Program-made: the position numbers and the translations under genes
Shown here: piece after piece, positions 3,965-64,000 of the stretch
Position numbering within the stretch: the stretch's first letter is position 1
Layout: the number at the start of each line of letters is the position of its first letter
Notes under the pieces: generated by a model
What the model was told of the DNA's origin: nothing
Database searches by the model: none
Seen by the model: only the letters and a program-made list of their open reading frames with translations
From: Escherichia coli
Lineage (GTDB): Bacteria; Pseudomonadota; Gammaproteobacteria; Enterobacterales; Enterobacteriaceae
Length of the DNA: 64,000 bases
Reading direction: 5' to 3' (one strand)
NCBI RefSeq assembly: GCF_003018115.1
Contig: NZ_CP027457.1

Positions 3965-4885
3965 ATGACGAATCTACCCAAGTTCTCCACCGCACTGCTT
4001 CATCCGCGTTATTGGTTAACCTGGTTGGGTATTGGCGTACTTTGGTTAGTCGTGCAATTGCCCTACCCGGTTATCTACCGCCTCGGTTGTGGATTAGGAA
4101 AACTGGCGTTACGTTTTATGAAACGACGCGCAAAAATTGTGCATCGCAACCTGGAACTGTGCTTCCCGGAAATGAGCGAACAAGAACGCCGTAAAATGGC
4201 GGTGAAGAATTTCGAATCCGTTGGCATGGGACTGATGGAAACTGGCATGGCGTGGTTCTGGCCGGACCGCCGAATCGCCCGCTGGACGGAAGTGATCGGC
4301 ATGGAACACATTCGTGACGTGCAGGCGCAAAAACGCGGCATCCTGTTAGTTGGCATCCATTTTCTTACACTGGAGCTGGGTGCGCGGCAGTTTGGTATGC
4401 AGGAACCGGGGATTGGCGTTTACCGCCCGAACGATAATCCACTGATTGACTGGCTACAAACCTGGGGCCGTTTGCGCTCAAATAAATCGATGCTCGACCG
4501 CAAAGATTTAAAAGGCATGATTAAAGCCCTGAAAAAAGGCGAAGTGGTCTGGTACGCACCGGATCATGATTACGGCCCGCGCTCAAGCGTTTTCGTCCCG
4601 TTGTTTGCCGTTGAGCAGGCTGCGACCACGACCGGAACCTGGATGCTGGCACGGATGTCCGGCGCATGTCTGGTGCCCTTCGTTCCACGCCGTAAGCCAG
4701 ATGGCAAAGGGTATCAATTGATTATGCTGCCGCCAGAGTGTTCTCCGCCGCTGGATGATGCCGAAACTACCGCCGCGTGGATGAACAAAGTGGTCGAAAA
4801 ATGCATCATGATGGCACCAGAGCAGTATATGTGGTTACACCGTCGCTTTAAAACACGCCCGGAAGGCGTTCCTTCACGCTATTAA
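3965..4885 (+). CDS. lpxL: lipid A lauroyl acyltransferase
   Basis: 306 aa from ATG 3965 ([20 protein letters not shown]...); track ORF starts 21 codons upstream. Confidence 0.93.
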
Positions 4886-4892
4886 ATCTCCC

Positions 4893-4923
4893 ATGCCGGA
4901 TGCTTCAGAATGGCATCCGGCAT
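4893..4923 (+). terminator. hairpin after lpxL, terminator-like or REP-like
   Basis: atgccggatgc / gcatccggcat 11-bp inverted repeat; no clear U-run, so weak as an intrinsic terminator. Confidence 0.35.
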
Positions 4924-5056
4924 TACCACAGCAAATCCCCCTGATTTAGCGATAAAAGCTCTCTGGATTGCGCCCCCTGGAAGTCGGGCGCATAATTAGT
5001 GTGCTTATCTTTTCTTCTTATGTTCACCGCGCCTGGCGCACCAACAGCGGATTGCT

Positions 5057-6283
5057 ATGTCACCCTGTGAAAATGACACCCCTATAAACTGGAAACGAAA
5101 CCTGATCGTCGCCTGGCTAGGCTGTTTTCTTACCGGGGCCGCCTTCAGTCTGGTAATGCCCTTCTTACCCCTCTACGTTGAGCAGCTTGGCGTTACCGGC
5201 CACTCCGCCTTGAATATGTGGTCCGGTATTGTCTTCAGCATTACATTTTTATTTTCGGCCATCGCCTCACCGTTTTGGGGTGGACTCGCCGACCGTAAAG
5301 GCCGAAAACTCATGCTATTACGTTCTGCTCTCGGCATGGGCATCGTGATGGTGTTGATGGGACTGGCACAAAATATCTGGCAGTTTTTGATCCTGCGGGC
5401 GCTTCTTGGTTTACTTGGCGGATTTGTCCCCAACGCTAATGCTCTTATCGCCACACAAGTACCGCGTAATAAAAGCGGCTGGGCGCTGGGTACGCTCTCC
5501 ACAGGCGGCGTTAGTGGTGCGTTGCTCGGCCCAATGGCTGGCGGCCTGCTCGCCGATAGCTACGGCTTACGTCCGGTATTCTTTATTACCGCCAGTGTGC
5601 TCATACTCTGCTTTTCCGTCACCCTGTTCTGCATCAGAGAAAAATTCCAGCCGGTCAGCAAAAAAGAGATGCTGCACATGCGGGAAGTGGTGACATCACT
5701 TAAAAACCCGAAACTGGTACTCAGCCTGTTTGTCACCACGTTAATCATCCAGGTAGCGACGGGCTCAATTGCCCCCATTCTGACGCTGTATGTCCGCGAA
5801 CTGGCGGGTAACGTCAGTAACGTCGCCTTTATCAGTGGCATGATCGCCTCGGTGCCAGGCGTGGCGGCTCTGCTGAGTGCACCACGACTCGGCAAACTTG
5901 GCGATCGAATCGGCCCCGAAAAGATCCTGATTACGGCGCTGATCTTTTCTGTACTGCTGTTGATCCCAATGTCATACGTTCAGACGCCATTACAACTTGG
6001 GATTTTACGTTTTTTGCTCGGTGCCGCCGATGGTGCACTACTCCCCGCCGTACAGACCCTGTTGGTTTACAACTCGAGCAACCAAATCGCCGGACGTATC
6101 TTCAGCTATAACCAATCGTTTCGTGATATTGGCAACGTTACCGGACCATTGATGGGAGCAGCGATTTCAGCGAACTACGGTTTCAGAGCGGTATTTCTCG
6201 TCACCGCTGGCGTAGTGTTATTCAACGCAGTCTATTCATGGAACAGTCTACGTCGTCGTCGAATACCCCAGGTATCGAACTGA
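5057..6283 (+). CDS. mdtG: MFS multidrug efflux transporter
   Basis: 408 aa polytopic membrane protein in conserved position after lpxL. Confidence 0.9.
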
Positions 6284-6365
6284 TTTTTCGCCTTTCATAC
6301 TTGCAAAAGCGGAGAATCAGCTATCCTTTTCCCTGAAACCTCATCAACTCAAAGGGAGAATCGTG

Positions 6366-6740
6366 ATGACCATGTACGCAACGCTTGAAGAAGCCATTGA
6401 CGCTGCACGCGAAGAATTTCTTGCAGACAACCCCGGCATTGACGCCGAAGACGCGAATGTGCAACAGTTCAATGCCCAAAAATACGTTTTGCAGGACGGC
6501 GACATCATGTGGCAAGTTGAGTTTTTTGCCGACGAAGGGGAAGAAGGTGAATGTTTACCTATGCTTAGCGGTGAAGCCGCGCAAAGTGTTTTTGATGGCG
6601 ACTATGATGAGATAGAGATCCGCCAGGAGTGGCAGGAAGAGAATACATTACATGAATGGGACGAGGGGGAATTTCAGCTTGAGCCACCGCTGGATACCGA
6701 GGAAGGACGCGCAGCAGCTGATGAGTGGGATGAACGTTAA
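6366..6740 (+). CDS. msyB: acidic protein MsyB
   Basis: 124 aa, extremely acidic (MTMYATLEEAIDAAREEF...DEWDER); ATG at 6366 one codon inside track ORF. Confidence 0.9.
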   Translation: MTMYATLEEAIDAAREEFLADNPGIDAEDANVQQFNAQKYVLQDGDIMWQVEFFADEGEEGECLPMLSGEAAQSVFDGDYDEIEIRQEWQEENTLHEWDEGEFQLEPPLDTEEGRAAADEWDER

Positions 6741-7030: not shown

Positions 7031-7131
7031 TTGCCAGATGCGACGTGAACGCCTTACCCAACCTACAAAATCTTGCAAAATCAATAAATTGCAGGAACGA
7101 TGTAGGCCTGATAAGCGTAGCGCATCAGGCA
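7031..7131. repeat. REP (repetitive extragenic palindromic) elements
   Basis: tgccagatgcgacgtgaacgccttacc and gtaggcctgataagcgtagcgcatcaggc resemble the E. coli REP consensus. Confidence 0.6.
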
Positions 7132-7140
7132 ACTACGTTT

Positions 7141-11323
<4,183 letters not shown>

Positions 11324-16595: not shown

Positions 16596-17348
16596 GTTGT
16601 CACCCTGGACCTGGTCGTACATTTAAGAAATTAAATCATTTCAACTTGGTTGTTAACGCAACCTGTATTTTGTTAACGCTGCGTTACGATGGAAAGTATG
16701 TCTGCGGAAATATTTTTAATAACTCACCCGCGCGTTGTATTTTTCTTTTTTTGTTCATACCAAAGTATTAAAACCCACGTAAATACGCTGTTATCTACGC
16801 AAAAAATATTTTGTTTTCTTTTAAATCTCCGTTTTCCGCTAGCAAAAAACACCAGACAGTCATTCTTCTTGCCCGTCGCTGATTGCTGCGATATGTCTTG
16901 CGCACAAGCCGTGACAAACCTCGTCTTTTTGCAGTAAAAAATTGTCCACGGAGGTGTGGAGAAAAAACAAGAACGTTTTACATGACGAAAGGACTACACC
17001 GAAATATTTTTTATATGCATTATTAGTAAGTTATCACCATTTGTATGATTTTTTAAAATTGTGCAATAAAAACCAAATGTACAACTTTTCTATCATTTCT
17101 AAACTTAATAAAACCTTAAGGTTAACATTTTAATATAACGAGTTACATTTAGTTACATGTTTAACACTTGATTTAAGATTTGTAATGGCTAGATTGAAAT
17201 CAGATGTAATCCATTAGTTTTATATTTTACCCATTTAGGGTTGATTTATTACTACACACAGCAGTGCAACATCTGTCAGTACTTCTGGTGCTTCTATTTT
17301 AGAGGCAGCTGTCAGGTGTGCGATCAATAAAAAAAGCGGGGTTTCATC
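16596..17348. promoter_or_regulatory. csgBAC / csgDEFG divergent intergenic control region
   Basis: 753-bp AT-rich non-coding region between divergent csgB and csgD starts; individual sites not mapped here. Confidence 0.7.
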
Positions 17349-22892: not shown

Positions 22893-22980
22893 GGTGAGGT
22901 GTCCGAGTGGCTGAAGGAGCACGCCTGGAAAGTGTGTATACGGCAACGTATCGGGGGTTCGAATCCCCCCCTCACCGCCA
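22893..22980 (+). tRNA. serX: tRNA-Ser (anticodon GGA)
   Basis: 88-nt sequence with 7-bp acceptor stem ggtgagg / cctcacc, long variable arm, anticodon loop ctGGAaa, TPsiC ggttcgaatcc and 3' CCA. Confidence 0.93.
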
Positions 22981-32856: not shown

Positions 32857-35800
32857 TCAGAAGGTCACATTCAGCGTGGCCTGACTGCTATAACCTTCAG
32901 CGCTGCTGCCGTTGATGCTGTGGGCATAACCGGCCTGAACGCCCAGGGTGATATTTTCCCGGACACGGGCTTCCAGTCCGGCCTGCAGATCCAGTGAAGT
33001 GCCATTCTGTGAGGGAGAGAACGTCATCCCGCTGCCTGCGGTGGAGGTCCCCACACGCATATCACCCCGGGAGCTGAAGGTGCGGATAACGGAAGGCTGT
33101 ACCCACCAGTTCACCGGCAGTTCACGCACACTGTGTTTTGCACTGTCACGCAGGGGGGCACGGGATGAGGTGCCTTCACCAAAGGTCATATCGTTGTGGC
33201 TGCCCAGACGGAAACCGGCACGCACATGCTGTGCACTGCCATGCCCGAACTTCACATAACCGGCGTTGTCCTTACCGTCATCCAGCGAAAGCCCCTGCCA
33301 GGTGTACTGCAGCCGTGGCTCCAGCATCAGGTTGTCAGTGATACTGAAGGGCAGACCGGTTTCCAGTGAGCCCAGCCAGCCCCAGCCCCGTGCGCGGAAG
33401 TCGTTATTGCCCGATGACGCTTTCATACTGTGGCGGGTTCCCTGTGCCACAATGTCAGCCCACAGGCCGGAGGAGGTGTGTGCCAGGTTCATATATCCGC
33501 CCAGGCTGCCGGCATCATCCCGGACCGTGCCGGCGCGGGAGCCGTCATCATCCTTAACATCAACGGAAGAATGGCCTGCAGCACCATACACTCCTGTCGT
33601 CAGTGACATACCGGCGACCTCTGTTCTGAGCAGGTCACCCTCCAGACGGACGAAGCCATAGCTGCCGCTGCTTTCCGGCGTGGCCCCACGGGCAATACCG
33701 CCGTTGTTATCGTGACCGAGATGGCCGCCCTGAATGCTGAGACGGACGCTGTTATTTTCACCGTTTACACCGGTCTGATGGCTGCGGGAGCCTGCCAGAA
33801 TCCGGTCATAGTCCATTGCCTGTGTCAGCATGGAGGCGTACAGGGGGACTTCAGCACGATAACGTTCTTCACTGCGCAGATACCAGCTCTCATCACTGTC
33901 CCGGTTGAGGGTGTAGTTAAAGGCCCCGGCCTGCAGCATATTCCCCTGGACAAAAGCCCCTTCCTCCGTGGTGGCACCGTTAATGGCCTCAACCACCTGA
34001 ATACCCTTACCGGTGGTCGCCAGCCCCGTACCACTGTTGCCGGCGTTCACCAGATTCAGGATGGTTTTTCCGGTTGCCCTGCCACCGTCAATGACCAGTC
34101 TGTCAGCATTGTTCTGCGCCATATCCGGACGTACACGCAGGCTGATGGTGCCATTCTGCCCGTTCAGGTTTTTCACCTGCAGAGTTGTCGGAACGAACTT
34201 CCCTGTGCGGGCGGAGGTGAAATGAATCTGTCCGGCATGGCTGAGGTCATCCACCACCGACTGAACCGTGGCGTTATCGGGAATATTCCAGGTGGCACCA
34301 GAGGCGAGAGTGACATTCGTGGGGTCAATGGCACCGTTCAGCACTGTGCTGCCGGTCAGCTTCAGGGCCGTGCCGCGCTGAGCAATGACATCCGTGGTGA
34401 CGGTACTGTCGTTCAGCGTCAGCGTGCCTTCATTCAGGTTGACGGCTTTCTGGGTGAGTGTGGTGTTGCTGACAGTGAGTGTTCCACTTCCTGATTTTTC
34501 CACCCTGCCGTTACCGGTGAGAGAGCCTCCCTGCAGGAGTGCATCGCCTTCACGGATGGTCAGGGTATCGTTGTTCACCGTCTTCCCGGAAAGGGTAAGT
34601 ATGGCGCCGTTATTCAGCGTGGTGGTGCCCGCCAGTGTGCCGCCCCTGGCGGTGAACAGTCCGCCATTTACCGTGGTATCCGTGGCCGTATCACCGGCGT
34701 TCAGCGTGAATGAACTGCCTTTTTCCAGCATCAGGGCATCCGCCTGACCGCCTCCGATACGGAATGCCTTTCCGTCGCTCCGGGTACCACTGACAGCGGC
34801 ACCGGAATCGGCCAGCAGTACACCGCCATTTCCCATGGATACGGTGGTGGCGGTGCCACCGTTGCGGACATCCAGCGTTCCGCCATCATCCACGCGGGTA
34901 TTAGTGGCTGTGTGTCCGGTCAGCACATCCAGGCGTCCGCCATTTTCCAGTACGACATTATCAGCTTTACCCTCCACAACAGAGAATGCTCCCAGGCGGT
35001 TTATGCCGGTAACGGTTGCAGCCGTACTGGTAACCAGTGCGCCGCCCTGCTTCAGGGTGACATTCGTGGCTGTACCACCGGCGTCCACCTGCAGTCTGCC
35101 CTTCTGATTAACGGTGGTATTCCCGGCCACACCCCCGTTTTTGACAATCTGCCAGCCGTCACTGTTCACAACAGTGTCAGACGCTGTACCGCCGTTGTGC
35201 ACATACTGGTATCCCCCATTCAGCGTGGTATCCAGTGCGTGACCATGTACAGTCTGGTCGCCGCCGGCATAAACCACAGTGGTATTTGCCGTTCCTTCAG
35301 TTCTCACAATCTGGCGACCGTTTTTATTGATGGTTGTGCGTACGGCATCCCCGCGAACAAACTGCCCGGTATCACCGTTTTCTGCATCCGGTCCCCCTTC
35401 CGCCCCGGTATTAACAACGGTATCCGTTGCCACTGTACCGGGCTTGACGACCTGCCAGCCCTTATCATTAATGACGGTTCCTGTGGCTATCGCCCCCTCA
35501 TGCATCCACTGTTCGCCACCATTCAGCGTGGTGTTCACTGCCCGTCCCTGAAGGCTCTGTCCGCCTCCGGCACTGATAACCGTGTCTGAGACACTTCCAC
35601 CGGGGTTCACTCTCTGAAGACCACCACTGGTGACAGTCGTTTTGTTGGCTGTTCCGCTATCCTGTACCCATTGCCCGCCGGTATTGGCCTCATTGTCCGG
35701 CCCGTACTCCAGACCGGTACTGATGGTCATTCCGTTGACCGTACCGAAGACAATCTGGTTGTCATGATTTGTCAGTGTTCCGCCGTTCACGGTTTCTCCC

Positions 35801-35976
35801 GCCTGTACAACCGTGTCAGCAGCCAGTGCCGGGACTGACGTGACAGCAGCAAGAGACAGCGCAACCGCCACACCAGCGCGTTTTCCCCGTGAGCGGGCCA
35901 GTTCGGAGGCCACCACCAGGGTGCCCGTAATGTGATTCCATACCAGCCTGTAGCTGGTGTTCAGATGTCGTTTCAT
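32857..35976 (-). CDS. flu: antigen 43 self-associating autotransporter adhesin
   Basis: 1039 aa from ATG 35976 (MKRHLNTSYRLVWNHITGTLVVASELARSRGKRAG...), repeat passenger domain, C-terminal beta-barrel ending ...ATLNVTF; track ORF extended 25 codons. Confidence 0.95.
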   Translation of the reverse strand: MKRHLNTSYRLVWNHITGTLVVASELARSRGKRAGVAVALSLAAVTSVPALAADTVVQAGETVNGGTLTNHDNQIVFGTVNGMTISTGLEYGPDNEANTGGQWVQDSGTANKTTVTSGGLQRVNPGGSVSDTVISAGGGQSLQGRAVNTTLNGGEQWMHEGAIATGTVINDKGWQVVKPGTVATDTVVNTGAEGGPDAENGDTGQFVRGDAVRTTINKNGRQIVRTEGTANTTVVYAGGDQTVHGHALDTTLNGGYQYVHNGGTASDTVVNSDGWQIVKNGGVAGNTTVNQKGRLQVDAGGTATNVTLKQGGALVTSTAATVTGINRLGAFSVVEGKADNVVLENGGRLDVLTGHTATNTRVDDGGTLDVRNGGTATTVSMGNGGVLLADSGAAVSGTRSDGKAFRIGGGQADALMLEKGSSFTLNAGDTATDTTVNGGLFTARGGTLAGTTTLNNGAILTLSGKTVNNDTLTIREGDALLQGGSLTGNGRVEKSGSGTLTVSNTTLTQKAVNLNEGTLTLNDSTVTTDVIAQRGTALKLTGSTVLNGAIDPTNVTLASGATWNIPDNATVQSVVDDLSHAGQIHFTSARTGKFVPTTLQVKNLNGQNGTISLRVRPDMAQNNADRLVIDGGRATGKTILNLVNAGNSGTGLATTGKGIQVVEAINGATTEEGAFVQGNMLQAGAFNYTLNRDSDESWYLRSEERYRAEVPLYASMLTQAMDYDRILAGSRSHQTGVNGENNSVRLSIQGGHLGHDNNGGIARGATPESSGSYGFVRLEGDLLRTEVAGMSLTTGVYGAAGHSSVDVKDDDGSRAGTVRDDAGSLGGYMNLAHTSSGLWADIVAQGTRHSMKASSGNNDFRARGWGWLGSLETGLPFSITDNLMLEPRLQYTWQGLSLDDGKDNAGYVKFGHGSAQHVRAGFRLGSHNDMTFGEGTSSRAPLRDSAKHSVRELPVNWWVQPSVIRTFSSRGDMRVGTSTAGSGMTFSPSQNGTSLDLQAGLEARVRENITLGVQAGYAHSINGSSAEGYSSQATLNVTF

Positions 35977-36189
35977 CAGCTTTTCCTTACAGAGGGTGAA
36001 TAAAAAAGCCGGTACCCACAAATGTGGATACCGGCAGGTACAAAACAGCATGGTCAGATAAAGTGGTTTTTCCCGGACATAAATGCTTCCCCTCTCTCAT
36101 CCGCCAGAGAAGTATCAGTCCGTTGTGTGCAATTCCGTTCTGCATGATGAAGAGATTCAGCTGCCTTTTCGCAGGCCATTAACCACCAT

Positions 36190-36232
36190 AAACGATCGAT
36201 AGTAACGATCGATACCTGTTTTATCGATCGTT
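36190..36232 (-). promoter_or_regulatory. flu phase-variation switch (three Dam GATC sites)
   Basis: GATC at 36194-36197, 36207-36210 and 36226-36229 in aacGATCgatagtaacGATCgatacctgttttatcGATCg, upstream of flu. Confidence 0.75.
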
Positions 36233-36348
36233 TTATTCTATTGATAGCAGAGCGGTCACGCAAGAGAAACAGGAGGGGCATGAGGTGTTTGTATCATGTT
36301 TTCAGTTGGTTAACGCAATGTAATCAGGCATTTCCCCTGGCAGACTGT

Positions 36349-37221
36349 TCAGAAGAAAATCCAGTTCCATACCGCGCGGGCAACAGAGACCACCGAGTCA
36401 CGGACGGCACGCAGAACCGTGCGTGCAACAGAGGCAATACAGACGCTCTCCGCCGTGTCAAATATCCGGTCCACCGCACCGGTAAACTGTTCACGGGCCT
36501 GAGACCGGACAGATTCCGTGCGCAGCTCGTCCTGCAGGCGGGTCATCAGGGGGCTGGCGGCATGGTCGGGAAGCGCTGTCATGAGCGCACTGACCAGCGT
36601 ATCCAGTTCCCAGCCGGTGCGGGCCGATACGGCAACAACCGGATGTACGGGCCGGAACAGACGGAATACCGCCTCCGTTTTTTCGCGAATGTTCTGTGCC
36701 TGTGCGGGAGAAGGCTGAATGCCGGCCATATCCCATTCATGGCAGGGCTCCGTTTTGTCGGCCTGCGTCACCACAAACAGCACCTGCTGATGCCCCCGGT
36801 GCAGAATGTGTCGCCAGAAATACTCATCCACAGACAGGGCCCGGTCATCGGCTTTAATCAGCCACAGTACCAGGTCCAGTTCAGACAGAATGTTACGGTA
36901 CAGGGCTTCATACTCTGCATCCCTGTCACGGCTCTCGCCCACCCCGGGCAGGTCAGTGATAACCATGCTGTGACCGTGACCACTCAGACGGAAGCGCTGC
37001 ACTTCCCGGGTGCCGGCGTGAACATCACTGACCGGGGTGACCTCCCCCTGAAACAGTGCATTACAGAGTGAGGATTTACCGGCCCCGCTTTTCCCCATAA
37101 TGCCAATCACGGGTTCGTGACTGGTGAGTTTGCGCAGATGTTCCAGGATGTGACGGGAAAGTGAGTAAGGCAGGGAAGAAAGTGGTTTTTCAATTGCCTC
37201 AATGGCATCAGACGGATTCAT
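36349..37221 (-). CDS. yeeP: YeeP/YfjP-family GTPase
   Basis: 290 aa from ATG 37221 (MNPSDAIEAIEKPL...), P-loop GKSGAGKSSL and G3 motif DLPG. Confidence 0.8.
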   Translation of the reverse strand: MNPSDAIEAIEKPLSSLPYSLSRHILEHLRKLTSHEPVIGIMGKSGAGKSSLCNALFQGEVTPVSDVHAGTREVQRFRLSGHGHSMVITDLPGVGESRDRDAEYEALYRNILSELDLVLWLIKADDRALSVDEYFWRHILHRGHQQVLFVVTQADKTEPCHEWDMAGIQPSPAQAQNIREKTEAVFRLFRPVHPVVAVSARTGWELDTLVSALMTALPDHAASPLMTRLQDELRTESVRSQAREQFTGAVDRIFDTAESVCIASVARTVLRAVRDSVVSVARAVWNWIFF

Positions 37222-37384
37222 ACATGTATTCCCGGTGAAAAAAGACAAAACCCCGCGCACCGGAAAGATGGCGGGGGATTCACGGAGATAATATCTGTCT
37301 GAAATTATTTGAAATGCAGGTATATGCAGCTAATTTGTATCAGCTTATTGGTACAGTACTAAACCTCATCTGACAGTCCGCTCT

Positions 37385-37399
37385 GTGCCAGGAGCGGAC
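37385..37399 (+). repeat. 15-bp direct repeat, copy 1 (gtgccaggagcggac)
   Basis: Identical 15-mer recurs at 38896-38910; this copy lies inside the hairpin gtccgct-N10-agcggac. Confidence 0.5.
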
Positions 37400-37502
37400 A
37401 TTCCGATATTGAAAAGTAAATTGTCTTGCTGTATTTTTTCAGTCATAAAAATGAATAAGGATTCTCAGATGAGTGAGATATTTGAACTATTCAGTTCTAC
37501 TG

Positions 37503-38228
37503 TCAGTCCTTAAGTTTATTCATAGAAAGCCGCTCTTGGCGTTTAAGCTCATTTAAAGTGAAAAAAGCACATTTATTAGATAAAATATAAATAGTTCCTA
37601 CTAACCGATGTAAGCGCCTCATTTTTTCGGGCATAGAGAATTCAGCATTTTTGACAAACATTAAAGAATCAACCCCAGCAGAGAACATATATTGTAAACT
37701 TTCCATATTAAAAGCCTCTAGTGGATTTACTTCGTTAATATCAATACTATTAACAGACCTCTCTATTTCGAGGTAATCTTCACTTGTCATTGAATAGTCT
37801 ATTTTATGAGCGAATTTATTGCGGATAGAATTCAGCTTAACTAAAGAATTTGCAATTGAGAGAGGTAAACCTAAAGCAACACAGATCTCCAGTTTTGGAG
37901 TAAAATATCGTGATGGTTTAACGAACTGCTCAGTACCAGGCTTCCTAACATTGTTGATGAATACTTCCAAGAAATTCTCAATCAATAGGCTAAGTCTTAG
38001 CAAGACTGATGCTTCGTCATTTATACTTAGTAAAGGTGCAAATTTTTCTGCGTCAAGAAAGAAACCGAGGTCATTATTAATCGCTACATATCCAGTTAGA
38101 TTGTTATTTGACTTCATATTCATAAAAACCTTATCTTGTATATTAGCGGCATATTGTACCATAAATTGAATCGTGGTTTGTTCTAAGAATGGACACAAGA
38201 ACTTCCTCTCCTCACTCATAAGAGACAA
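37503..38228 (-). CDS. AT-rich hypothetical protein with HEPN-like Rx4H motif
   Basis: Track ORF of 241 aa (TTG start); likelier start ATG 38123 (MNMKSNNN..., AAGG RBS); motif LNSIRNKFAHKIDY fits the HEPN Rx4-6H signature; AT-rich codon usage. Confidence 0.45.
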   Translation of the reverse strand: MSLMSEERKFLCPFLEQTTIQFMVQYAANIQDKVFMNMKSNNNLTGYVAINNDLGFFLDAEKFAPLLSINDEASVLLRLSLLIENFLEVFINNVRKPGTEQFVKPSRYFTPKLEICVALGLPLSIANSLVKLNSIRNKFAHKIDYSMTSEDYLEIERSVNSIDINEVNPLEAFNMESLQYMFSAGVDSLMFVKNAEFSMPEKMRRLHRLVGTIYILSNKCAFFTLNELKRQERLSMNKLKD

Positions 38229-59823: not shown

Positions 59824-62800
59824 TTAATCCCTAACCTTGAGAGATTTCATGCCAGGCTGCCAGTAGAGGACTGATCCTGTAGCCTCTTCATAAATTGTTA
59901 AAGATTTTAGCCCCGCTTTATCAGCCATGGCTGCTATATCACCGCGGCAATAACCACATACAGGCTCTTTAGATACACTCATTGTCATCTCACGCCCTTG
60001 AGACATACCCTTTTCAAAAGCTTGCTGTATAACACCTACTTCAGCATGAGCTGTAGCCATATTGCCGTTAGGAAGAGGCTTGTTTTGCTTATCTATTTTA
60101 GCTTGGATTCGTCCATCAATGAGTGTTGGCTTATTCACATCTGCTAAGTTGGAAGGCCTTGCACCCTGATTAGTATCAGTAAACTTAGCTCCATCAACAT
60201 TACCTTTCGCTACGACCTTAAGATTAGCATCAACGATTTTACTTAATTGTTTTGCCGCAGCAGAACCCAAAATTGGTGTCACCGAAGCCGCAATGCTCTC
60301 CAGACCCTGCTTTGTTTCGGTGTAGCTTTCTGCGGTCTGACGATCCACCCCTTTGGTGACCATGAAATAGTTAATCATGGCGTCTTTCACCTGTTGCTGA
60401 TTCTGTGCATCAACACTGGTGATATCGAGGAGATTGACCATCTGACCATACGCATCAGCGTATTGCTGGCTGTATTTCGAGTTATAAGGGCCATCTTCGT
60501 ACCCTTCTTTCGACGCAATAACTTTCAGTCTTGCGCTGGCACACGCTGAACTACCCGCATTACCATTACCGCAGGCAGCAATAACCTCCTTATCACTGGC
60601 AATATCTTTCTCACGCAGAGCATTATATTTCTGTTGCGCCTTTTCGCGCTCTGCCGGATCTTTACTATTTTTAAGCGTCTGTTTTGCTATCTCAAGCTCT
60701 GTCTTTTCAGACACGCTAAGATAGTTATTCTCAACCGCGTTCCTGCCTGCCTGTGCCCCCGTACCGGCAGACGCCGTACTGTTGCCTGCAAGCCCGCCCG
60801 CAATACCTGAGGCAATGGTGGCCAACATGCTGATTTGCTGACGTTCCTGTTCACTCAGGTTATCAGTACGACCACCATAGTAGTTATCAATGATATACCG
60901 GGCTGCAAGTTCACCGCTGAATGCCCCTGCAGCACCGGAAGCCGCATTGTTTCCGCCCAGTTGTGCGGCAAGCGCTCCCCAGACTGCGTGAGCCATCAGG
61001 TTTGCTTCCCGGTTATCGCCGGTGGCCTGTTTTATAAGCTGTGCCACTGCCGGATTCAGACCGCCAGCCAGTATCTGCCCCGGATTCCCTGCATTCAGTC
61101 CGCCCAGCACACCCGTGATGGCCTGTACCACCATCTGCGGCGTACTGCCCGTACCGTAGCCTTTCATGACCTCTCTGTATTCCGGGGTCTCCCGCAACTG
61201 TGCATCGCTCATGCCAGGATGCTCTTTCCTGGCTGCTTTCATCGCTTCAGTTTCGCCATACGTCATGACGATGTTACTCATCTGACCGCTAATCTGGCTG
61301 ATAACCTGCGCTTCCTGCAGACGCTTCTGCTCTTTCTCCCTGTCAAATATCGGTGCAATGCTGCCGTTGGCGTTTTCCGGGTCCCGGCTGAGCCCGGCAA
61401 TATCCTGCTTCTGACTCTCATTATCACGGATAATGAGATTTCCGCCGCTGATGGCGGATGACGTGGTACCTTCAGCATGTCCACTGCTGCCGGACATACC
61501 GGTAAGTGCGTTCGCCGCACCGGCTATTGCATTTGAGGCCACCATCTGGCTGGCTGACATCCCTGAGCCACCCGATAAACTGATTCCGGTATGGCTGGCT
61601 TTATAGTCTGCCTGGTTATGGATATCCGACCAGCCCAGCGTATTGGTATTGAGGCTGTTTTTGTCATCCGTTGCCGTGGACGCAATTACCGCACCATTGA
61701 GCTGAGTGTGATTCCCAACAGTGACATCAAACCCGTCTTTTCCGGCGTAGATACCACTCTGTTCCCGGACAGAATCGTAATTGCTTTTAATTTTGTCCTG
61801 ACTGATGCTGGCATAGCCGCTGCCGGACATTGAGCCAAACGTGAAGCTTCCACCTGCAGCCACGCTGTTCTGTCTGCTGTCGTAACGGTCACTGTCCTGA
61901 AGGCTCGAAATGGTCAGGTTGTTGCCGACATCTGCTGTGACTTTCTCGCCACTGACCTGAGCCCCCGACAGGGTGGTATCACGTCCGCTTGTGAGGGAGA
62001 CATTTTTACCCGCATCCAGCGTGGTTTCGGTCCAGGTCGTGCCGTTGCCTTTCTCCCTGCCCTCTGAACCATTGATACCGGCGAAGATACTGAGGCCTCC
62101 GCCATTGGTTCCACCACCAAAGCTGACGCCCACGCCGCCACCTTTGCTGCTGTTCTTCCCGGTTGTCTGTCGGGTGTCAGCGGCGGCAGCCAGCAGAATA
62201 TCGTTCTGTGCATTCAGGCTGGTGTCATTGCCGGACTTAATCTGGCTCCCGGTAATGAGAATATCGCCGCTGTTGTTATGGTCCTTATTTTTCCCCGTGG
62301 CAGTGACAGAGACATTGTTACCGGCGCTGAGGGTTGAGCCGGAGACGATATCGTGCTGATATTTCGTCTCAGACTTCGACTGCTGATGGTTGAGCGAAAT
62401 GCTCACGCCGATACCATTATTCGGGTCAGCACTCTGTTGCTGCAGTCCGTGGTTAACACCGGCCTGTACACCAGACAGAACCGCCTGTGTTCCTTTCAGT
62501 GCCGCCAGACGGCTGTCGCTGGTTTCTTTCGCCTCCCGGGCCATGGTGGCAGCATTATTGATGGCACTGCCCACTGTGCCGGAAAGGGCAACCGTCAGCC
62601 CGCTTTTCTTCTGCTCAAATTTTTCGTCCACAGTACGACGGTCATGCCCCGGGTCAACCACCACACTGTCACCGGTAATGCTGATATCCCGGTTCGCAAT
62701 CACATCCGAACCGCTGATATGAGCCTGTTTGCCCGCGGTAATACTGACATTACCAGCAGTGGAGCCGATGGTGCTGGCACTCTGACTCTGCGTTGTCCCG

Positions 62801-64000
62801 GCCTCGCGGCGGTCGTGCGTTGTCTTACTGCTGCCAGTGGTGAAACCAATACCGCCGGTACCCGTCAGACCGGATTTCTTCGTTTCCTTAAAGCGCCAGG
62901 ACGTATCTGTACTGGTGGCAGCAAGAACATCAACATGGTTATCCGCCGCCAGTGACACATCCCAGTCAGCCACCACATCCGAACCCTGTACCGTCAGGTT
63001 ATTACCGGCGTTAACGGTCACGCGGTTTCCCGACAGCAGGGAGCCCTTCTCACGGGTGACGCTGTCTTCCGTGATGGTCCGGGTGGTCTGATGGCTGAGG
63101 AGACGGTTACGGGTTTCCCCTGATTCACTGTAGTGATAATCACTTTCCGTGGCAGTACCCAGTACGATGTCATGACCGGCATTCACACGGATATCGCCCT
63201 TTGCCGTTACAGCGGTCGCAACTGAGGTGATATCCCGTCCGGCAGTAACCGTAATGTCACCGCCACTGGTCATGTCTGTTCCCTGCTGCCGGACCGAATC
63301 ATGAACCGTCTTCATGCTGAAAGTGCTGTCGTGGTCACCTGCGCCTGTGGACTCCGCAGCCATGTTCACATCCCGTCCGGCGCGGATAGCCATACTGTTT
63401 TCAGCCGTAATACCGGCAGCCTGGCTGTTCACATCACGACCGGCGGAAAGCATCAGACTGTTCCCGGCAGTGACCGTGGGGGCCACGGCATGAGTTTCAT
63501 ACCACCCGGACCCGCCATAGCGACGACGTTCTCCGGCCTGTATCGCGTTCATGTTCAGGTCATTACCGGCGGACAGTAACACGCTGTCACCGGCAGAAAC
63601 GGCGGCACCGGTGATACTGATATCCCCGGCTGCGCCCATAAACAGTGAGTCCGTTGCCCTGACAGCAGCCAGCGGACCGGTATCCGTTCCGCTGAAATGG
63701 TTATATCCGTTGTTCATCGCCCACTGTTCTGTCCGGGTGAGGTTACTGATGTTTCCGGTGGCGCTTTCCAGGGATACGGTTTTACCGCTGATGACTGAGC
63801 TGATATTGCCGATATCCCCGATGGCCTTCAGGTTCAGTGCACCACCGGCGTTTATCAGTCCGGCATTCAGGTTGTCGATACTACCTGTGCTGTCGAGCAG
63901 GAGGTCATTCTGTGCGTTGATGCTGCCGCCGCTGTTGGTGATATTGCCACCCGCAAGCTGCACGTTGTTCCCGCTGATAACGCTGCCATTATGAAGGGTG
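59824..64000 (-). CDS. cdiA: contact-dependent inhibition toxin CdiA, 3' portion (N-terminus outside window)
   Basis: Frame open from window end to stop at 59824; filamentous-haemagglutinin-type repeats, pre-VENN region, VENN ([12 protein letters not shown], plus strand 60724-60735) and about 300-aa C-terminal toxin domain. Confidence 0.88.

Follow-up and report, generated by a model that had tools for sequence, protein, structure and literature searches.

The three GATC sites upstream of agn43 (flu) in the stretch of Escherichia coli DNA analysed here (64,000 nucleotides; hereafter the window) are best explained as part of a functional copy of the agn43-family Dam/OxyR epigenetic switch, controlling an intact Ag43 gene on the minus strand. 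The probability of this explanation was estimated at about 0.85. The strandless sites were located at 36226..36229 (GATC-I), 36207..36210 (GATC-II), and 36194..36197 (GATC-III), with start-to-start distances of 13 and 19 bp on the plus strand. Since flu lies on the minus strand, GATC-I comes first in gene order, GATC-II starts 19 bp after it, and GATC-III starts another 13 bp downstream. The sequence-only reading that preceded this work had proposed three GATCs at these spacings in the flu leader, arranged as in the Dam/OxyR switch of Ag43 and forming an intact switch of an island copy. These proposals were all borne out. The sites occupied approximately the first 36 nt of an IsrC/IS102-type leader (Rfam RF00124, 36231..35995), abutting the -10 hexamer, and the 19/13 spacing, the -10, and the OxyR half-sites stood in the K-12 register. 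The -10, GATCs, half-sites, leader terminator, ribosome-binding site, and Ag43 gene were all in place, the elements were conserved, and the gene lay within an island at tRNA-Ser serX. For the window copy, OxyR binding, differential methylation, and switching are presumed, and phase variation of the serX-island copy is very likely. The system is already known, and the allele present here is a very common one; the finding, although correct, is ordinary.

Two OxyR dimer half-sites were predicted on the minus strand from sequence and conservation. Half-site 1, ATAGAATAAAACGAT (36227..36241), overlapped the -10 hexamer and GATC-I, while half-site 2, ATCGTTACTATCGAT (36195..36209), carried GATC-II and GATC-III, 13 bp apart, at its two ends. 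Each matched ATAGnTnnnAnCTAT at 8/10 positions. They were separated by a 17-nt spacer, CGATAAAACAGGTATCG (36210..36226, minus strand), and their centres were 32 bp apart, the canonical distance for reduced OxyR (PMC4856963). The paired half-sites with this spacer scored 16/20, the unique best match among ~64,000 positions of the window (runner-up 14). The same 16/20 arrangement was found in K-12, both agn43a and agn43b of CFT073, UTI89, O157 cah, strain 1303 cah, Citrobacter braakii, and C. amalonaticus. A compact 37-bp OxyR consensus was also tried and was rejected as non-discriminating, because it matched 13/20 here and 14/20 in K-12 and reached at least 13 at 16 places in the window; it was replaced by the two half-sites with the 17-nt spacer.

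Half-site conservation was investigated in a 12-sequence alignment across three genera. Half-site 1 did not vary among the eight E. coli-type sequences compared, and allele differences in half-site 2 were limited to the unspecified positions 7-9. Half-site variation in the alignment fell on consensus-open positions, except at two half-site 1 positions in the copies from C. werkmanii and Raoultella. Variation was free in the spacer and flanks. A 13-nt gap placed in the switch by a MAFFT alignment of the window and K-12 was spurious; ungapped anchoring gave the true register.

The spacer of K-12, CAATATCTATTTTATCG, differs from that of the window, where the CTAT at the centre of the K-12 type is missing. 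In the compact 37-bp register, the window copy matched at 10/20 positions by hand count, compared with 14/20 in K-12. The poorer match suggests that OxyR affinity or switching rate could differ from K-12. A stronger form of this idea is that the variant binds OxyR too weakly or in another mode, so that the gene is biased or locked ON with its GATCs always methylated, or switches at rates far from those of K-12. The missing CTAT and the compact-register count speak for it. However, neither strong half-site is disrupted, their 32-bp spacing, which is canonical for reduced OxyR, is kept, and the variant occurs in thousands of genomes with the three GATCs in register in the aligned full-length copies, as expected under selection for the switch. 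Such a defect in binding is therefore considered unlikely.

The distribution of the two spacer types was determined in 5426 complete E. coli genomes. The 60-nt core of the window type was found in 3216 of them (4612 places) and that of the K-12 type in 1203, so the textbook K-12 operator is the minority form and the majority form differs from it in the spacer between the OxyR half-sites. Of 3218 matching records, just 2 fell short of 80% coverage of the 60-nt core, and the three GATCs were in register in every full-length copy aligned. UTI89 carried the window type, and both CFT073 copies carried the K-12 type. The 501 bp around the switch were 100% identical in strain 2014C-4135.

In K-12, OxyR bound to the unmethylated GATC region represses transcription, and Dam methylation of the three sites stops binding and allows full transcription. 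The ON and OFF states are heritable, with switching at ~10^-3 to 10^-2 per cell generation, and expression is intermediate when both Dam and OxyR are lacking (PMC3764049, PMC4872104, PMC13337833). Binding of OxyR to unmethylated but not to Dam-methylated DNA was shown for K-12 agn43 and gtr (PMC4872104, PMC13337833, PMC2909390). Switching is unaffected by OxyR's oxidation state, and reduced OxyR was reported to be enough for switching of agn43, gtr, and opvAB (PMC2909390, PMC4856963). In CFT073, SMRT sequencing detected a run of three adjacent GATCs that were unmethylated upstream of each of the two Ag43 genes (PMC4752239). The two CFT073 copies with this methylome evidence have the K-12 spacer type, unlike the window copy, and no experiments on the window (cah/UTI89-type) spacer variant were found in the accessible literature.

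Carried over from K-12, the mechanism at the window copy would be as follows. An OxyR tetramer on the two half-sites, 32 bp apart, would cover the -10, the start site, and all three GATCs. Bound OxyR would block RNA polymerase and shield the GATCs from Dam, keeping the gene OFF with its sites unmethylated. If Dam methylated the GATCs first after replication, OxyR could not bind and the promoter would fire, turning the gene ON. Both states would be inherited and would rarely switch. Transcripts would then have to read through the IsrC-type leader terminator to reach agn43. The dam and oxyR genes were absent from the 64-kb window; E. coli carries both.

The promoter elements were read on the minus strand. 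The -10 hexamer TAGAAT (36235..36240) was separated from GATC-I by AAAAC and was invariant in every compared sequence downstream of a YeeP-like GTPase gene, including K-12. A -35-like hexamer, TTGCGT (36258..36263), was read from the sequence 17 nt upstream of the -10; it matched the consensus at 3/6 positions, and its TTG was conserved among the aligned E. coli alleles. A strict sigma-70 promoter scan called no promoter at the switch because the -35 matches at only 3/6 positions, and the promoter was assigned by homology to K-12 instead. The G of GATC-I aligned with the annotated 5' end of K-12 isrC and is thus the likely transcription start; the annotated 3' end of isrC is the T-run of the hairpin just before the flu ribosome-binding site.

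The agn43 leader RNA (35995..36231, minus strand) was a divergent variant of the IsrC/IS102 type. It matched RF00124 over the full model length (positions 1-206) with 74.8 bits against a gathering score of 46; the match began 2 nt before GATC-I and ended at the leader terminator. The scores of K-12 isrC (252.6 bits) and CFT073 (237 bits) were much higher, and the Rfam IS102/IsrC model appears to reflect K-12-type leaders. The intrinsic terminator (36002..36035, minus strand) consisted of a 12-bp GC-rich stem (hairpin 36035..36008) followed by a T-run and ended 13 nt before the ribosome-binding site AAGGA (35984..35988, minus strand; read from the sequence). The terminator hairpin, AAGGA, and ATG were conserved with K-12. 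Antitermination at IsrC is reportedly needed for flu expression (PMC5389530). The leader also contained a 41-codon ORF (36054-36179, minus strand) with its ATG at 36179 just after GGTGG. Its counterpart in a related contig (L021) lacks that stop and extends to 136 codons, so the ORF probably does not represent a conserved leader peptide.

A weak -35 and a strong leader terminator might together keep the copy effectively silent, preventing meaningful agn43 expression whatever the methylation state. The 3/6 match of the -35, the empty promoter scan, and the 12-bp GC-rich hairpin with its T-run just before the ribosome-binding site would fit such silence. K-12, however, has a similarly weak -35 (TTGTCC) and the same terminator and expresses Ag43, and the window coding sequence is intact across 1039 codons. 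A silent copy is very unlikely on these grounds, and a functional switch remains the preferred explanation.

The window contained 223 GATCs, an ordinary number (246.6 ± 14.3 in shuffled sequences). Some GATC triple spanning at most 32 bp arose in 71% of random placements of 223 sites in 64 kb, and a tighter triple was present elsewhere in the window (10222-10240). The exact 13/19 architecture occurred once in the window, with a chance probability of ~0.005. The switch sites were the only GATCs over 4.9 kb, from 32989 to 37883. That the cluster is a chance by-product of the short ATCGATCG repeat with no regulatory role is scarcely credible: some tight triple is indeed expected in 64 kb (P = 0.71), and GATC-II and GATC-III lie within an imperfect 13-bp direct repeat, but the exact architecture is improbable by chance, its position is homologous to the characterised K-12 switch, and the cluster is kept across divergent alleles and Citrobacter while the flanks diverge, so the comparative data already contradict this view.

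GATC was depleted in the coding sequence downstream of the switch. The window agn43 coding sequence had 1 GATC compared with 8.4 ± 2.1 in synonymous-codon shuffles (0/500 as low). The agn43/cah coding sequences of K-12, CFT073 (both copies), UTI89, O157, and strain 1303 had 0-2 GATCs compared with an expected 6-11 (loci L002 5540-8659, L029 45611-48730, L030 21815-24937, L003 4267-7113, and L004 4266-7115). As a consequence of the depletion in agn43, the switch is the sole GATC cluster in 4.9 kb (window 32857-37883). Among the 27 long ORFs of the window that were tested, the only other strong outlier was the ORF at 59824-63717 (minus strand). Because of this second outlier, GATC depletion may not be specific to the switch.

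A more speculative reading combines the spacer with the depleted region. The extended (reduced-form) mode might be the only one in which the CTAT-less spacer variant binds OxyR, so that switching frequencies differ from K-12 or the switch shifts towards ON under oxidative stress, and the 4.9-kb GATC-free zone might insulate the switch from the activity of Dam, SeqA, or MutH at sites nearby. This combined proposal is regarded as rather doubtful.

The agn43/flu coding sequence (32857..35976, minus strand) encoded 1039 amino acids without an internal stop. The Ag43 protein was 96% identical to K-12 Flu in a gap-free alignment and did not differ from the annotated agn43 product of strain 2014C-4135 (NZ_CP027310). 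It scored 1860 bits with NCBIfam NF033177 auto_Ag43 (Ag43/Cah equivalog), for which the cut-off is 1200. No second flu copy was present in the 64-kb window. Upstream, the switch had a conserved neighbour, the YeeP-like GTPase gene (36349..37221, minus strand).

The core chromosome and the island meet at the tRNA-Ser(GGA) gene serX (22893..22980, plus strand), which adjoins ghrA. Positions 1-22.7 kb of the window were core E. coli chromosome, with solA, lpxL, mdoGH, csg genes, and ghrA; these flanking core genes (solA, csg, mdo, ghrA) were 98.9% identical to an E. coli chromosome. Two Rfam sRNA matches lay in the core part, ES056 (17202-17293, plus strand, 117.6 bits) and ES036/CssrF (7067-7109, plus strand, 47.9 bits). 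To the right of the tRNA, the island carried IS110, conserved yeeS/T/U/V-like genes, IrmA, a hypothetical gene of 2.5 kb, and agn43 with the GTPase gene. It also held an integrase fragment and a dGTPase, a type I restriction-modification system that enclosed DarTG, copies of IS66, and fragments of CDI toxins. Compared with strain 2014C-4135, the window showed 99.92% identity across the island and 98.9% across the backbone.

The dGTPase, of the anti-phage type, the restriction-modification system, and DarTG, located between hsdS and hsdR, made up a defence cluster at ~38.3-53.9 kb, a position mapped from L001 and L009. In the near-identical strain 2014C-4135, darT was frameshifted. Several IS66-family copies and orphan CDI toxin/immunity fragments were found downstream of this cluster.

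Two natural variants of the switch were observed in other E. coli strains. Upstream of cah in strain OkiPb01715 (L006 ~4001-4039), a 13-bp deletion had taken out a single unit of the ATCGATCGTTTAT tandem repeat present in the O157-type switch. The deletion removes one GATC and destroys OxyR half-site 2, and it looks like a route to a locked state. Short core matches of this kind were rare; of the two records below 80% of the 60-nt core, this was the one inspected. The allele of strain GF4 (L007 ~4001-6680) is an example of a decayed copy: its GATCs are spaced 18/13, an IS66-family element has inserted into the leader, and agn43 is a pseudogene interrupted by an internal stop.

A cross-species pattern scan gave 18 matches. 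Thirteen of them had no recognisable switch context and looked like chance, mostly in GC-rich DNA of unrelated genomes. The same switch, with ATAGAAT, 19/13 GATCs, and the 16/20 OxyR match, was found in Citrobacter braakii (L018 5109-5145, minus strand) and C. amalonaticus (L023 941-977, plus strand), in both cases downstream of a YeeP-like GTPase gene. In C. braakii, two small ORFs with signal peptides (154 and 157 aa) came after the switch in place of Ag43. These ORFs had no Pfam match and were not homologues of IrmA. The results suggest a portable switch module whose cargo can be exchanged.

The three-GATC 19/13 module was also found with OxyR-like half-sites in a different promoter context in Citrobacter werkmanii (L011 7176-7212, minus strand) and Raoultella ornithinolytica (L020 5097-5133, plus strand). 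It lay upstream of unknown membrane proteins of 191 and 256 aa, respectively. Next in C. werkmanii came a SLATT-like gene, whose Pfam match was weak and below the cut-off, and a SMODS gene (9.7e-34). Raoultella had ORFs of matching sizes with N-termini similar to those of the C. werkmanii SLATT-like/SMODS pair. This could be a phase-variable locus beside a CBASS-like defence pair.

Beyond annotation, the finding is of little import. Very probably, only some of the cells express the Ag43 adhesin of the serX island. Such expression bears on aggregation, biofilm, or expression data obtained from single colonies, a pitfall described in PMC3764049.

Compared with the agn43/flu locus of K-12 (isrC-flu), the window copy had the same -10 TAGAAT, the same GATC-I at the annotated RNA 5' end, and the same 19/13 spacing, which with its register is shared by CFT073 as well. 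Half-site 1 was identical to that of K-12, and half-site 2 differed at unspecified positions only. The last 66 bp, containing the terminator and ribosome-binding site, were ~94% identical, and a YeeP-like GTPase gene lay upstream in both. Outside the ~55-bp switch core and these last 66 bp, the two intergenic regions were unrelated; this applies to the -35/upstream region and to ~150 nt in the middle of the leader. The leader was 222 nt long in K-12 and ~253 nt in the window. The K-12 gene lies in the CP4-44 prophage, whereas the window copy lies in the serX island.

The cah systems were near-identical to the window in their regulatory region, whose 501 bp were 99.6% identical in strain 1303 and 98.6% identical in many O157:H7 genomes. 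The cah loci of O157:H7 and strain 1303 shared the spacer type, leader, and GTPase neighbour with the window, but their downstream gene was different: Cah (~949 aa, calcium-binding) compared with the K-12-like 1039-aa Ag43. Regulatory identity with differing downstream genes points to recombination near the gene start. Since near-identical regulatory regions (35900-36400) precede either Cah or Ag43, the switch and the structural gene appear to recombine as separate mosaic modules.

The window copy also resembles other OxyR-dependent switches. In Salmonella gtr (P22, LT2), GATC pairs 13 bp apart lie inside one OxyR dimer half-site, as in half-site 2 here, and methylation abolishes OxyR binding (PMC2909390). 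The half-site spacing in gtr and opvAB likewise fits reduced OxyR, with 32 bp from centre to centre in opvAB (PMC2909390, PMC4856963). However, gtr and opvAB carry three or four alternatively occupied half-sites upstream of the promoter, and OxyR is able to activate as well. Unlike these systems, the agn43 switch described here has a single operator of two half-sites spanning the -10 and the start site, at which OxyR would act as a repressor only.
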